From a virus (lineage: Duplodnaviria; Caudoviricetes), in the IMG/VR virus record IMGVR_UViG_3300008107_000554, positions 1 to 51,610 of that record: a DNA stretch of 51,610 bases, one strand, 5' to 3'. Made by a program: the position numbers and the translations under genes. The notes below the pieces were generated by a model that was not told the origin of the DNA, did no database searches, and saw only the letters and a program-made list of their open reading frames with translations. Below are positions 8,341 through 37,455 of the stretch, in pieces (the stretch's first letter is position 1; every line of letters starts with the position of its first letter).

Positions 8341-15797
<7,457 letters not shown>

Positions 15798-15801
<4 letters not shown>

Positions 15802-31681: not shown

Positions 31682-32538
31682 ACTCCCATAAAAGCGCCCA
31701 TCCGGGCCATGATGTCAGAGGCTTCGTCGATCTTGGACTGACGCAGCACCGGGTCGTTGACCACGGCATCCTTGCTCAGACCAGCCAGCTTAGCCTCCAC
31801 CTCGTAACGCATAGCTTCGAGGTTCGGGTCGTCCATAATATTCAACCGAGGCAACAGCTTACACAGTTCTGTGATGTGCTCAAGCGTGCTCTCATGGAAC
31901 CGAGACTTGGGGTCGTCGATCTTGGAGAGACGCTCAACCATATGCTTAACACGATCGTAAAGGCGTTGCCAAGCATCACGCATGGCGATGCCAGAGTTTT
32001 CTTCCACCCTGCGCTGGAGGTCAGCCTTGATACTGTCAAGCTCATCGTCTGCCAGTTGGACACGGAAGTCAGCAGTCGGCACAGGCAGGACCACCAAGTC
32101 CATGCTGAACTTAGACCGCAGGTCGCGGACATCGGGGTAGTCCTCGATGTTGTAGAGGGTGCCGAGGAACCGCTGAGCCGTGGTCTGGAGGGACGGGTAG
32201 TCCGCCAAGAACTTACTCACCACCTGCTCCCACTCAGACTTGCGCTTGCGGAAGGTGGTCATGAAGCTGAGGTAGTTGGAAGTGGGCAGCATGTGTGTGT
32301 TGTTCAGCCCCCACGGCAGGGTGTTGGTCAGGAAGTCCTTGCGGATGTCACCTGTCATGGTGTGGATGTTGGCGAGGCTGTCACTCATGGGCAGCAGCTT
32401 CTTGTGGTAGTTACCCACGTCATAGCCAGCGCCGTTGATGTCGGATACTGCCTTGGTGGCCTTCTTGTCCAGCTTGCGTGCTGTCCACTGGGAGATGTTA
32501 AGCTGCACCAGCAGTGCACGATCAGAGAGATGTGTCAT
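31678..32538 (-). CDS. DUF3150-like helical protein
   Basis: TLPW..MLP..F..FLADYP..DYP...RSKF pattern typical of proteins encoded beside AAA+/vWA genes. Confidence 0.65.
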   Translation of the reverse strand: MTHLSDRALLVQLNISQWTARKLDKKATKAVSDINGAGYDVGNYHKKLLPMSDSLANIHTMTGDIRKDFLTNTLPWGLNNTHMLPTSNYLSFMTTFRKRKSEWEQVVSKFLADYPSLQTTAQRFLGTLYNIEDYPDVRDLRSKFSMDLVVLPVPTADFRVQLADDELDSIKADLQRRVEENSGIAMRDAWQRLYDRVKHMVERLSKIDDPKSRFHESTLEHITELCKLLPRLNIMDDPNLEAMRYEVEAKLAGLSKDAVVNDPVLRQSKIDEASDIMARMGAFMGV

Positions 32539-32553
32539 GGTCTGTGTCCTTGT

Positions 32554-32859
32554 TTAAGAGATACGGTGAGCAGTGAGATCAGCCAGCACTTCGTCTGCTG
32601 ACCGGGCGGTCCAGCCATCGGGGATACTGATCGGGATTTCCCCGGTCAGGTAGTTGTCACTCGCGTCATCGGTGGCGATGATCCGGGCGTTGAACGAGGT
32701 GGAGTAGTCCATCTCATCAACTAAGTCCCATATGGACTTGCCACCATGATCGAGGTCAGCGCGGACTTTCTCCACGGCGGCAGCGAGGTTGTCTGCTTCC
32801 ACCTCAACGTGGCCATAGACACTGACGTCATGGGCTAGGGTGAAGTTGAATGTGGGCAT
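32554..32859 (-). CDS. Hypothetical protein
   Basis: VEVEADNLAAAVEKV; AAGGAG RBS. Confidence 0.6.
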   Translation of the reverse strand: MPTFNFTLAHDVSVYGHVEVEADNLAAAVEKVRADLDHGGKSIWDLVDEMDYSTSFNARIIATDDASDNYLTGEIPISIPDGWTARSADEVLADLTAHRIS

Positions 32860-32862
32860 GTG

Positions 32863-33072
32863 TTACTCCTTGTTGATGAGACGGAGATAGGCTTGGTAAG
32901 CGGTCCACTGGTCAGGGAACTGTTGCTTGAGGTAGTCGGTGAGGGAGAGCATACGATCGGACCAGTCACGACTGTCCCGATACTCGATATACTCACCAGT
33001 CATGCGGCCAAGGCCACCGAACCCGTCGATGGCCTTGATGTAGACGAGATACCCTGCAAAGGTGCCTGTCAT
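32863..33072 (-). CDS. Hypothetical protein
   Basis: MTGTFAGYLVYIKA.. starts immediately after the ATPase stop. Confidence 0.55.
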   Translation of the reverse strand: MTGTFAGYLVYIKAIDGFGGLGRMTGEYIEYRDSRDWSDRMLSLTDYLKQQFPDQWTAYQAYLRLINKE

Positions 33073-33073
33073 A

Positions 33074-34066
33074 TCAGAACAGCACCGACTGATGCTTGAT
33101 GGACCAGTCAATGAAGCCCTTGGTCGAGGTGACGGCGGGATCACGACGGACAGCCATCGACATAGCCAGCACTGAGAACTCAGCCGGGCAGCGGGACAGG
33201 TAAGTGACAGCCCGGTCGATGTTGGCCTGAGAGATGCGTGATGCGATGGCACCAGACAGAGCGTAGAGAGTGGCCGGATCGGACGGCACATCGGCACCAT
33301 CGGGGTTGAGTAGGATGGCATCAGGGTTAGGCAGCTTGCGGTAAATCTTGAGGAACCCCACGAACTCAGCCGCAGCCCCCTCACCAACGGCACCCTTGAA
33401 GCAGTCGAACTCAGCCTCAGCAGGGACAGCACCGAGCACAGCACTGACACCCTCAGCCCACGAACGAGGCGTTGGGTTCTGGTCCTTGTTGGCATCGAAG
33501 TCATGGAGCAGACCGGGACGGAAGCGGATGAAGGCCACGACCTCAGACTTGACACCATGTGTCAGTGCCCACGACGACCAGTCATCGAGGTTGGTGTCGA
33601 ACTCTAGGACAGTCTCACGATTGCGGAGGTGGGACAGCACCCGGTTAGCCCCGGCACGATCCGACTGCCTGTTACCAGTGGAGACGACAGTCCAGCCCTT
33701 GGCAAGGGGTGTGCCGTGGAGATTGCGTGCTTGGCAGATGTTAGCCAGCACTTTCTGGATGTCGGCCGGGGCTTGGTTACGATCATCGAAGCAGAGCACA
33801 CCACCACGACCGTCGTCGTAACGAGAGCCAACGGCAGGGAACCAGTCGGGGATCATGTAACGCAGGGTCTCGCCCCCAATGACAGGGATGCCGAAGTCCT
33901 CGACCAGCATGGTCGGCAGGTGACGCTCGACGTAGTGCAGACCGAGAGCCTCAGTCACAGACTGAACGAGGGTGGTCTTGCCACCACCCGGCGCCCCCTC
34001 GATAGCCACGGTGCGGTTGATCGAGATGAGGTCTTTAAGTGTGTCAGACAGAAGGGATGGACGCAT
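33074..34066 (-). CDS. MoxR-like AAA+ ATPase
   Basis: Walker A GAPGGGKT, Walker B LCFDD, sensor I TGNR, Arg finger LRNR and sensor II TPRSW. Confidence 0.9.
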   Translation of the reverse strand: MRPSLLSDTLKDLISINRTVAIEGAPGGGKTTLVQSVTEALGLHYVERHLPTMLVEDFGIPVIGGETLRYMIPDWFPAVGSRYDDGRGGVLCFDDRNQAPADIQKVLANICQARNLHGTPLAKGWTVVSTGNRQSDRAGANRVLSHLRNRETVLEFDTNLDDWSSWALTHGVKSEVVAFIRFRPGLLHDFDANKDQNPTPRSWAEGVSAVLGAVPAEAEFDCFKGAVGEGAAAEFVGFLKIYRKLPNPDAILLNPDGADVPSDPATLYALSGAIASRISQANIDRAVTYLSRCPAEFSVLAMSMAVRRDPAVTSTKGFIDWSIKHQSVLF

Positions 34067-34087
34067 TGTGTATTACTCCATGTGTTG

Positions 34088-34151
34088 TGGCTTGTCTCAT
34101 CAGTGCCACGGTAGCCATCCGTGGCAGACTGGGGTTGCCCCCAGTTTCGAC
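34088..34151 (-). ncRNA. Type II hammerhead ribozyme with loop I pseudoknot
   Basis: The minus strand reads GUC-GAAA-CUGGGG(GCAA)CCCCAG-UC^-UGCCACGG(AUGGCUA)CCGUGGCA-CUGAUGA-GAC-AAGCCA. All core nucleotides and three stems are present. Confidence 0.92.
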
Positions 34152-34167
34152 TCATAGGGAATTTGCC

Positions 34168-34950
34168 TCACCCCCACCGCTTCTTGCTGGACTGGATGGC
34201 AGTAAGCTGCTTGTAGGCAGTGACATAGGCCACCTCGGTCTCCTCGATGCAGTCGTGATAGGTCAGCACTTGGCGCCGGATGGCGTCGAGGTGAGAGTCA
34301 ACAGTGACATAAGTGGACATGCCACGGGCAATGTCAGCGTAGCGATCCGGCTCATCGAGGCAAGCCAAGGCGATGTTAGACAGGCTGACAGTGCCCCAAC
34401 GCTCACCTTGTCTAGGGTCAATGCCCAGTCTGACTTGGGTCTGGACCCACAACTTGAACTGGTCGAAGCCCTTGGCACAGGCAGCATTAGCCTTCTTGCG
34501 GTTGACACTGTAACGGGTGAAGGGCTTGGTCCCAGCGATGATGTTAAGGTTCTTGTCCAGTGTGGCACAGCCATCGACCAGATACCCCATGCTGGTGTTG
34601 TTGATAGCACTGTTGCGTATCCACAGGACAGGACCAACAGGGTTGGTGTAGCTGGCCCAGACAGCACCGCGGAGCACTTGGTTGACCGCCTCGTCTGTCA
34701 GCTTGGAAGCATAGGGTTCGAGGTCAATGGTGCCATCGTCATGGTAAGTGATGATGTCAGTCTGGTAGAGCCGGATGGCGACAGAGCCATTGTCAAGTTT
34801 GCGGATGGTGAGGTTGTCATTGCGCCGCTGACCAAGGGGTCTCGTGTCAGTGGACCGCCCCCTGATGGGGACGATGCTGTCATACTTAGCCAGAGCTTGC
34901 TCATAGGAAGTGATGCCGCCACGGGGCAGGACGATGTTAGAGCCGAACAT
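34168..34950 (-). CDS. Hypothetical early protein
   Basis: 260 aa; YDSIVPIRGR..RPLGQRR, LYQTDII; AAGGAG RBS. Confidence 0.7.
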   Translation of the reverse strand: MFGSNIVLPRGGITSYEQALAKYDSIVPIRGRSTDTRPLGQRRNDNLTIRKLDNGSVAIRLYQTDIITYHDDGTIDLEPYASKLTDEAVNQVLRGAVWASYTNPVGPVLWIRNSAINNTSMGYLVDGCATLDKNLNIIAGTKPFTRYSVNRKKANAACAKGFDQFKLWVQTQVRLGIDPRQGERWGTVSLSNIALACLDEPDRYADIARGMSTYVTVDSHLDAIRRQVLTYHDCIEETEVAYVTAYKQLTAIQSSKKRWG

Positions 34951-35177
34951 TACAGGGTCTCCTTGATAGCGTTGATGCTGTTGTTGGTGGCGTTGACCAC
35001 GGACCAGAGGGCAGTCTCGTAGGGGATGGTCGGGTCAGACTGGATGACCTTGTCCACCTTGCGGTAGAACTCATTGACGCCGAGGTAGCCAATGACTGAC
35101 ATGGTGACACGTATCGTCTTGGGGTCGAGGACGGCGGTGGAGACGAAGGTGGTCGTAACGGTGACGGTGGTAGGCAT
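34950..35177 (-). CDS. Hypothetical early protein
   Basis: Coupled ORF with AAGGA RBS. Confidence 0.55.
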   Translation of the reverse strand: MPTTVTVTTTFVSTAVLDPKTIRVTMSVIGYLGVNEFYRKVDKVIQSDPTIPYETALWSVVNATNNSINAIKETL

Positions 35178-35178
35178 G

Positions 35179-35388
35179 TCAAAGTCCTTTCAAATGTGAG
35201 AGCCACTTGTAGACAGTGGACTGGCCGACGTTGAACTGAGCGGCAGCCTCCTTGACAGAGACACCCTCCACTCTGACGAGGCGCAGCACTTCGGCTCTCG
35301 TGGTGTCGTCGAGACCATAGGCTGGGTGGTAATCAGGGACGACTATGAGATAGTCGGGGCTGGATGGTGTAAAGGCCAGCCGCATCAC
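35179..35388 (-). CDS. Helix-turn-helix protein
   Basis: EGVSVKEAAAQFNVGQSTVYKWL. Confidence 0.75.
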   Translation of the reverse strand: MMRLAFTPSSPDYLIVVPDYHPAYGLDDTTRAEVLRLVRVEGVSVKEAAAQFNVGQSTVYKWLSHLKGL

Positions 35389-35657
35389 AGTGCCACCTCT
35401 ACCGGAGCAAGGCCGGGGTTGAACTGGATGTTAAGATGAGTGACGCCATAGTGCTGCTTGAGGTCGTGACGGTCACAGACAGTGATCCGGCAGTTGTTAA
35501 GCGGGGAAGACTGGTCGACCACTACGAGTTCATGACCAACGGTGTAGTCATAGACGGCATCAGCCTGACTGATGTAAGGGCGGCGAAGTGGCTTGACAGT
35601 GAGGGACTTGGTGTAAACCTGAGCAGCGAGGTCAGCGAGTTTGGTCCAGTTGGCCAT
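35385..35657 (-). CDS. Hypothetical early protein
   Basis: First gene downstream of the 35770 promoter; ATG 35657 after GGA. Confidence 0.55.
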   Translation of the reverse strand: MANWTKLADLAAQVYTKSLTVKPLRRPYISQADAVYDYTVGHELVVVDQSSPLNNCRITVCDRHDLKQHYGVTHLNIQFNPGLAPVEVAL

Positions 35658-35741
35658 GATAAGGGTCCATAGTTGTGTGTTAAGATTGATAAGCATTGTC
35701 AGGACCAGACTGTTTACAAGGTAGAGTCGGCCTGAGCCATG

Positions 35742-35770
35742 ACCTTAGCCGATTCCGCTGGCCGTGTCAA
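35742..35770 (-). promoter_or_regulatory. Sigma70-type early promoter
   Basis: TTGACA-N17-TAAGGT on the minus strand. Confidence 0.75.
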
Positions 35771-35789
35771 GTTTCGGAGGGTAGGGAGG

Positions 35790-36400
35790 TTTAATCCGCG
35801 CGGATAATGGGTTAGTCCGCGCGGGAACTGTGTAAAGTATCTACGAATTGGGCGCGCGATAGGCGAAGTATCTTTACAGTATGGATAGTGCAAGTGTTTG
35901 ATTTTGTTAGCGTTTTTTGGGGTGTATCTAAACTATCTACGATTTTTCAGAAGATAGACCCACTAAAAGAGCGCAACTGGAGCGGTTGTATTGTAAAGGT
36001 TTACACTCAACCGAGTTGATTGACGATTTCCGTCACGTATCTTCAAAAAAAACGTGTATATTATAGATAGTTTAGATACTTTACTACTACTACACACTGG
36101 TTTGATATGCTTTACACAAGCTAACCCCTTGGTTTCATTGGCTTTTCCATTTTGGTGTAAACATGTAAACTATCTAAATTTTACACATTCCGTGTAAAGG
36201 TAGTGTAAAGGTAAAATAGATAGTTGTTTAATATCAATGACTTACTGGGTGTAAAGACATAGGCCCCCGACAAATGGCACTCGATACGAGACGCTTTACA
36301 CTAGAGCTACAGGCCCCCGACGTATGGCGAGTGTAACGAGCAAACTTAACACGCAACCGCTACCTATGCGGGCGGTGTAAAGGTGTAAAGGTGTAGAGCA
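35790..36400. repeat. AT-rich non-coding region with GTGTAAAG/CTTTACAC and TATCTA repeats; putative replication origin
   Basis: Eight perfect octamers (35830, 36110, 36192, 36203, 36249, 36294, 36375, 36383) plus variants. 16-bp inverted repeat at 35924-39/36064-79. 18-bp near-identical direct repeat at 36261/36311. Confidence 0.7.
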
Positions 36401-36406
36401 GACAAC

Positions 36407-36438
36407 AAAAAACCCGCCCGGTGGTTAGCCGGGCGGGT
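36407..36438 (-). terminator. Rho-independent terminator
   Basis: ACCCGCCCGG-ctaacca-CCGGGCGGGT followed by a U-run on the minus strand. Confidence 0.85.
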
Positions 36439-36443
36439 CAGGG

Positions 36444-37221: not shown

Positions 37222-37455
37222 CTGCTAATTTATAAAAATCTGCGACAATTTATAACAAAAAACGCGCGCCGCGCGGTCGCAGGCAGGCATGGGGGGTGGG
37301 GGGTTGGACAGCGGTCGCGCGGCCCCCCGCTATTGTAGTAAACCTCTTACAACACAACCCAAAAATACCAATCTTTACACCTGTACATCACCCGAACATT
37401 TTATAACACCCCTGCCAAAAATTTTCCCGGCCCAAAAAACCAAATCTTTACACTA

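Follow-up and report, generated by a model that had tools for sequence, protein, structure and literature searches.

What would a self-cleaving RNA be doing in the short gap in front of a phage ATPase gene, and does the gap hold one at all? The window considered here, by which we mean the whole stretch of DNA that was analysed (51,610 bases; IMG/VR record IMGVR_UViG_3300008107_000554), carries on its minus strand a compact element for which a sequence-only reading had proposed a type II hammerhead ribozyme, cutting a polycistronic early message before the start codon of the ATPase gene and leaving the downstream part with a hairpin-capped 5'-OH end resistant to 5'-monophosphate-dependent decay. 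Our own reading, to which we give a probability of about 0.85 on the basis of comparisons of sequence, is that the element is a functional type II hammerhead on the minus strand which would probably uncouple the message of the ATPase module from the genes upstream of it. Its parts, in the order in which the RNA would be made, are the following.

34085-34152, minus strand: the whole type II hammerhead, from an Rfam RF02276 match and the MFE fold
34149-34151, minus strand: 5' strand of stem II, GUC, read directly and pairing with GAC at 34094-34096
34145-34148, minus strand: core GAAA (G12 A13 A14 A15.1), read directly
34129-34144, minus strand: stem III hairpin, CUGGGG (34144-34139) with CCCCAG (34134-34129) and the loop GCAA (34138-34135)
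34127-34129, minus strand: cleavage triplet GUC, with the cleavage-site C (C17) at 34127
34127/34126, minus strand: predicted scissile bond, after C17 and before U34126, placed by alignment to the Rfam consensus
34104-34126, minus strand: stem I hairpin of 8 bp, in which UGCCACGG (34126-34119) pairs with CCGUGGCA (34111-34104)
34112-34118, minus strand: loop I, 7 nt, AUGGCUA, read directly
34097-34103, minus strand: core CUGAUGA (C3 to A9), read directly
34094-34096, minus strand: 3' strand of stem II, GAC, read directly and from the alignment of relatives
34088-34092, minus strand: 3' tail AGCCA, separated from stem II by a single A (the linker)
34076-34079, minus strand: GGAG, a Shine-Dalgarno-like motif 9 nt before the ATPase ATG and outside the ribozyme fold

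Both the 5' and the 3' end of the element lie in stem II, which is the open stem, and stems I and III are capped by loops; this arrangement is the type II permutation. Within the core, A34145 pairs with U34128, and direct reading together with alignment to the consensus recovers CUGANGA, GAAA, the pairs A15.1-U16.1 and G10.1-C11.1 and, at the cleavage site, a nucleotide other than G (C17). The tail AGCCA (34092-34088) is fully complementary to UGGCU of loop I (34117-34113), which gives a pseudoknot of 5 bp.

The assignment does not depend on inspection by eye. When the whole window was searched on both strands with all 4227 Rfam families, Hammerhead_II (RF02276) matched 34152-34085 over the full model (1-66) with 40.0 bits, above its gathering score of 37, and an E value of 9.3e-5; no other RNA family is credible in the window, where a permissive scan adds just two noise matches (E 0.24 and 0.57). 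The modest score follows from the 3-bp stem II and the one-nucleotide linker, both of which align as insertions relative to the Rfam consensus. Folded alone, the 68 nt of 34152-34085 adopt the hammerhead three-way junction both as MFE and as centroid structure (-28.4 kcal/mol, z -2.99), and one of 200 shuffles did as well. Our own covariance model, R1, matches 34084-34153 at 88 bits, a value that is high by construction, the model having been built partly from the window sequence. The record, estimated to be 94% complete, holds this single hammerhead in its 51,610 bases.

The genes on either side are both encoded on the minus strand.

34168-34950, minus strand: upstream gene, a 260-aa ORF without a family match, whose stop codon lies 16 nt before stem II
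33074-34066, minus strand: downstream gene, a MoxR-like AAA+ ATPase of 330 aa (PF07728 AAA_5, E 4.3e-6; phrog_1297, E 6.3e-65), with its ATG at 34066-34064

The ribozyme stands in sense orientation and fills most of the 101-nt gap between these two genes, in which (34067-34167) a simple consensus scan found neither a sigma-70-like promoter nor an intrinsic terminator. Elsewhere in the record, the plus strand encodes a terminase, an SU10-type portal, a major head protein, an internal virion protein, a tail fibre and an endolysin, and the minus strand from about 35.4 down to 15.8 kb encodes an HTH protein, the MoxR-like ATPase, a DUF3150-like protein, a DUF2201 VWA/metallopeptidase, a family A DNA polymerase, an SNF2 helicase, an exonuclease and a primase-polymerase; every family-supported gene between 15.8 and 35.4 kb is on the minus strand. 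The record is thus the genome of an uncultured phage, and the ribozyme sits within its leftward regulatory and replication operon. Calling the transcript early is a guess, and the scan of 49 ORFs brought up none that was recognisable as a phage RNA polymerase. A megablast of 32000-36000 against phage records returned no match, and tblastn with the ATPase listed matches of about 30% identity or less, many of which, going by their names, we take to be N4-like podoviruses. A search of sequencing runs gave DNA data and a few runs labelled as RNA, all in the form of contigs, and the four compared with the window (X15, X17, X19 and X20) show neither transcript starts and ends nor strand; contigs X19 and X20 cover 33414-33665 only, inside the ATPase gene, contig X15 is marked as probably DNA, and the loose contig ends at 34103 and 34105 are ribozymes of relatives that bear other stem I sequences.

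Some further features of the record may be listed for completeness. The minus strand has, at 36411-36439 and 37263-37275, two strong hairpins with U-runs that resemble terminators, one of them with an 11-bp stem containing 9 G-C pairs, and the region of 36.4-38.1 kb that holds both separates the leftward from the rightward gene cluster. Weak sigma-70-like promoter matches occur at 36198-36169 and 35683-35656. On the plus strand, an ORF of 2486 aa (8341-15801) matches neither a Pfam family nor a PDB sequence, and its C-terminal 500 residues are the only part that matches PHROG (phrog_11358, function unknown); the product may be a giant protein of the virion or for ejection.

How firmly the ribozyme belongs to this gap can be judged from relatives of the phage. 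Scanning IMG/VR with the ATPase protein gave 22 loci of 38-98% identity from 26 pattern matches, and 21 of them are informative, L015 having no upstream DNA. A hammerhead on the ATPase strand and in the same slot was found by motif search and R1 in 18 of the 21, and nine of the 22 loci reach the RF02276 gathering score, with 39.2-41.2 bits. The end of CUGAUGA falls 23-66 nt before the ATPase ATG in 16 of these 18 loci; in L019 and L021 the distance is 203 nt, with a 57-aa ORF between. By the same two methods the hammerhead is absent from L017, L020 and L022, each of which has its upstream DNA, and none was found at any of five distant ATPase loci (30-33% identity) in Gammaproteobacteria MAGs, where a search of genome contigs with the ATPase recovered relatives of 30-33% identity only. 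The ribozyme is therefore dispensable for the ATPase module. Nor did the ribozyme-less relatives reveal a replacement RNA among the Rfam families at E <= 1, except for one noise match.

Two of these ribozyme-less loci have leaders of their own. L022 carries, at 2350-2500 and just upstream of the ATPase, about four tandem copies of a unit of about 12 nt, of the form CGCAGTACC..., and in L017 the ATPase is preceded by another kind of leader (2390-2500), some 100 nt long and rich in hairpins, which matches no Rfam family.

Where the ribozyme is present, its pairings are preserved through changes on both sides. A MAFFT alignment (A2) comprises 10 distinct ATPase-linked copies out of 13 distinct sequences; L001, L002 and L008 are left out of it, the last two for a shorter stem III that MAFFT misaligned, and all three are included in a model-based alignment (A3). 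In A2, standard pairs account for 97.4% of the cells, a share that drops to 33.8-45.2% on sliding the partners, and 11 of the 23 pairs change on both sides, a figure that none of 500 shuffles matched. Compensatory two-sided changes are seen in six of the eight pairs of stem I, the middle pair of stem II goes from U-A to C-G in two of the 10 relatives, both from one clade, and stem III has compensatory changes in both alignments. The four core pairs of the pseudoknot form in all 10 copies of A2, and three of the four change on both sides, loop AACC and tail GGUU replacing GGCU and AGCC, with all the double changes coming from a single clade, the same one that shows the switch in stem II; the fifth pair (U-A in the window) is formed in only five of the 10. 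Core GAAA is invariant in all 10 relatives, as is the catalytic core as a whole bar the variable position 7, where L018 has C.

The same picture emerges from a wider set, obtained by a core-pattern scan that gave at least 132 stretches, in which R1 found at least 143 matches from 91 sources, 133 of them distinct among those listed. These 133 copies make up A3, an alignment fitted to R1, whose loci were picked with a search pattern in which the core and stem II are fixed; with that proviso 97.8% of its cells are paired, sliding the partners lowers this to 27.9-51.5%, and two-sided changes occur in 16 of 18 pairs. Positions A15.1 and U16.1 pair as A-U in all 133 listed copies. In 90 of the 133 listed copies (67.7%), loop I and the 10-nt tail can form at least four Watson-Crick pairs in a row, compared with 12.9% in a permuted-tail control, and some 40 different pairs of loop I and tail sequences are used among them. 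The stems in A2 and A3 also accept G-U pairs, a tolerance that fits pairing in the sense-strand RNA and not in the DNA or the antisense strand.

Could the motif nevertheless be a chance look-alike, or the inactive relic of a ribozyme? An Rfam score only 3 bits over the threshold might suggest so, but the E value was obtained for the whole window, all core positions are intact, 18 of 21 relatives have the element, and compensatory changes occur in all three stems and in the pseudoknot, which together make this explanation extremely improbable. We conclude, as far as comparison of sequences can establish it, that the element is a real type II hammerhead maintained by evolution, and it is very probably an active ribozyme. 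The sequence-only reading is thereby borne out in its structural claims: every element and coordinate that it listed is present on the minus strand on direct reading, the type II assignment is upheld by the Rfam model that it had proposed as a check, by the MFE fold and by covariation, and the pseudoknot of UGGCU in loop I with AGCCA in the tail, formed by 5 bp in the window, covaries in relatives.

A different question is what selection has kept the element for, and here the neighbouring genes are informative. The ATPase, DUF3150-like and VWA genes downstream are conserved, and the 260-aa gene upstream is variable, its homologues in relatives being 35-85% identical, with extra inserts before the ribozyme; the ribozyme therefore marks the border between a variable and a conserved block. 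The first 300 nt of the ATPase gene are 94-96% identical to the window in L001-L006, and in L002, L003 and L005, where this value is 96%, identity falls to 60-66% over the 300 nt upstream of the ribozyme, so that a sharp mosaic breakpoint is located at the ribozyme (window 34067-34400 against these three loci). The ribozyme itself is 70-86% identical where the ATPase start is 94-96% identical, and the slot stays occupied; its stems can be wholly different between phages with near-identical ATPase genes.

Such a border invites the explanation that the ribozyme, real as it is, is kept mainly as a portable junction between modules, the cutting of RNA being secondary or serving to free the expression of inserted cassettes. 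The core and tail with the ribosome-binding site would form a unit of short homology for swaps of upstream modules and insertion of cassettes, and the sharp break in homology at the ribozyme (94-96% against 60-66%) speaks for this, as do the inserts of varied size that separate the 260-aa gene from the ribozyme in L002/L013 and L009/L011. In L003, and identically in L004, the 260-aa gene and the ATPase have an additional ORF of some 140 aa between them, within 1888-2504. A hammerhead stands on each side of it (1888-1955 and 2384-2453), and so does one copy of a 25-nt direct repeat made up of ribozyme tail, GGAG and ATG; the two copies, at 1945-1969 and 2480-2504, are 96% identical. This looks like a cassette inserted by recombination within the unit of ribozyme and start region. 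It is, however, one case in two near-identical loci, and mosaic breakpoints in phages fall in intergenic regions in general. Moreover, a strict catalytic core and compensatory changes in the stems point to selection on the RNA fold and not on DNA homology. We therefore regard a role mainly as a junction as quite unlikely.

A combined form of this idea, in which hammerhead, tail, ribosome-binding site and ATG make up a cassette boundary at the levels of both RNA and DNA, draws on the homology break, the insert in L003/L004 and the different stems beside near-identical ATPase genes; we think it unlikely. If it were true, cutting of the RNA would free the message of each module, the conserved 20-45 nt of core, tail and start region would be the point of crossing over for swaps of upstream modules and insertion of genes, and newly acquired genes would arrive already insulated for expression.

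We favour separation of messages, which is the simplest role for a ribozyme in this slot. When the polycistronic minus-strand RNA is made, the element would fold into its three-way junction, braced by the pseudoknot of loop I with the 3' tail, and would cut itself after C34127. The stem III hairpin would then lie at the 3' terminus of the upstream RNA, which would bear a 2',3'-cyclic phosphate, and the downstream RNA would have its 5'-OH at the base of the stem I hairpin; because the first nucleotide of the 3' product is also the first of stem I, the message downstream would open with an 8-bp hairpin. With the cut at 34127/34126 and the ATG at 34066, this product would carry a leader of 60 nt (34126-34067). 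Once cut, the products would be joined by nothing more than the 3 bp of stem II and so should part. In the predicted fold of the cleaved leader GGAG is not stably paired, and the ribosome-binding site would thus stay accessible. In this way the message of the ATPase module may be uncoupled, physically and kinetically, from the fast-changing genes upstream, in the manner of an insulator and permitting the two parts to have different stabilities. The claims of the sequence-only reading about position agree with the gene map and coordinates: the element is in sense orientation in an intergenic gap of the minus-strand cluster, the predicted cut lies 60 nt before the ATPase ATG, and the 3' product would, as it proposed, be capped by a hairpin, starting at the base of the 8-bp stem I, with the 5' product ending in that of stem III. 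That such processing or insulation benefits the downstream message is, in our estimate, somewhat better than an even bet.

The accessibility of the ribosome-binding site also bears on whether the ribozyme might be a switch, in which translation of the ATPase is turned on by cleavage, or by some alternative fold or factor that keeps cleavage from happening, for example through unmasking of the initiation region. The MFE fold of a 126-nt context (34050-34175) does pair the end of the upstream ORF with codons 2-5 of the ATPase gene. That fold has an ensemble frequency of 0.002 and a z of -1.75, though, and of the 12 loci tested only the window, L001, L006 and L009 give a pairing better than that of shuffles (fraction <=0.07), the other eight having fractions of 0.16-0.985; GGAG, moreover, lies outside the ribozyme and is not masked by stable pairing in the cleaved leader. 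We consider a switch very unlikely, and the long-range pairing itself was rejected because it is not conserved in relatives.

The proposed separation of messages can be set beside both a natural and an engineered system. Between the early genes of phage T7 lie sites for the host RNase III. As in T7, a polycistronic phage RNA would here be cut between cistrons, with a hairpin left at the end of the upstream message; in T7 the cut is made by a protein enzyme of the host and leaves 5'-phosphate and 3'-OH ends, whereas here the RNA would cut itself and leave 5'-OH and 2',3'-cyclic phosphate ends. RiboJ is an engineered ribozyme insulator derived from a different hammerhead. It shares with the present element the position of a hammerhead before a ribosome-binding site and a 5'-OH leader that starts with a hairpin and is independent of the upstream sequence; RiboJ is synthetic, whereas the natural function of the present element is something that we infer.

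Whether the 5'-OH and hairpin cap do stabilise the message is a separate point. By analogy they may do so, as a general statement in a preprint (bioRxiv 10.1101/2020.07.22.216051), in the part of it used here, is that a ribozyme-made 5'-OH slows end-dependent decay; the argument presupposes that decay in the host depends on the 5' end.

The closest comparison is with the class itself. Natural type II hammerheads were described by Perreault et al. 2011 (PMC3088659); the sections of that article on which we draw report that the pseudoknot of loop I with the 3' tail was tested by a mutant and a compensatory mutant, that these ribozymes are often placed around single genes in prophages, and that they may cut long phage transcripts into mRNAs of the length of a gene or an operon. 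As far as those sections go, the present element has the same catalytic core, the same topology with a short open stem II and capped stems I and III, the same pseudoknot, in which loop I forms four or more pairs with nucleotides just 3' of stem II (a common and non-obligatory feature of the class), the same setting between genes of phage or prophage operons and the same proposed role in processing. It differs in being single in its genome rather than one of a cluster, and in nothing categorical. Judged by its sequence, then, it has each of the features by which the type II family is recognised, and both the class with its phage intergenic setting, known since 2011, and the idea of processing are already contained in that paper (PMC3088659), within the sections referred to. 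In Desulfovibrio vulgaris, in vivo cleavage of three type II hammerheads with phage-like genes close by is shown by the cyPhyRNA-seq results in the portion of PMC8782182 considered here, which indicates that predicted copies of this kind work in living cells. These three share the ribozyme type and the phage-like neighbours with the present copy; they are chromosomal copies in a cultivated bacterium with cleavage shown, whereas the present copy is known from sequence alone.

The present case adds one well-supported and cleanly placed example to a large set of phage hammerheads, and existing knowledge of ribozymes or of phage gene expression is not changed by it. Its attraction is practical: a single copy, at the border of a variable and a conserved block, with relatives that naturally lack the ribozyme, lends itself to a simple comparison of stability and expression with and without it.

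Is the position before an ATPase gene itself characteristic? A survey of layout covered 121 distinct copies among the matches listed, at loci not chosen through the ATPase. In 86 of the 109 listed copies that have a same-strand frame of 60 codons or more nearby, that frame closes between -2 and +6 nt relative to the first base of the model, and the next ORF (at least 50 aa) starts at most 30 nt past the last base of the model in 94 of 111 listed. The gaps between the R1 match and the flanking genes in the window (14 nt upstream, 17 nt downstream) are typical of the surveyed copies. Of the 111 listed downstream ORFs, 81 have no PHROG match at E <= 1e-5, and two, at L086 and L083, are phrog_1297 ATPases, which we think are kin of the present phage, going by model score and contig size only; the others listed are scattered over a single-strand DNA-binding protein, an anti-restriction protein, a RusA-like resolvase, a methyltransferase, an anti-repressor, GroES and others. 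Since the downstream ORFs are so scattered, the class appears as a general punctuation of phage operons that is untied to the ATPase. A specific link between type II hammerheads and MoxR ATPases was accordingly rejected, with two of 111 listed downstream ORFs and a hammerhead at none of the five distant MAG loci.

Some viral contigs carry many type II hammerheads spaced 300-900 nt apart, among them one IMG/VR contig of 38.5 kb (L067-L069) and that of L070-L071. On one contig there are at least seven hammerheads of this subtype, one in each intergenic gap.
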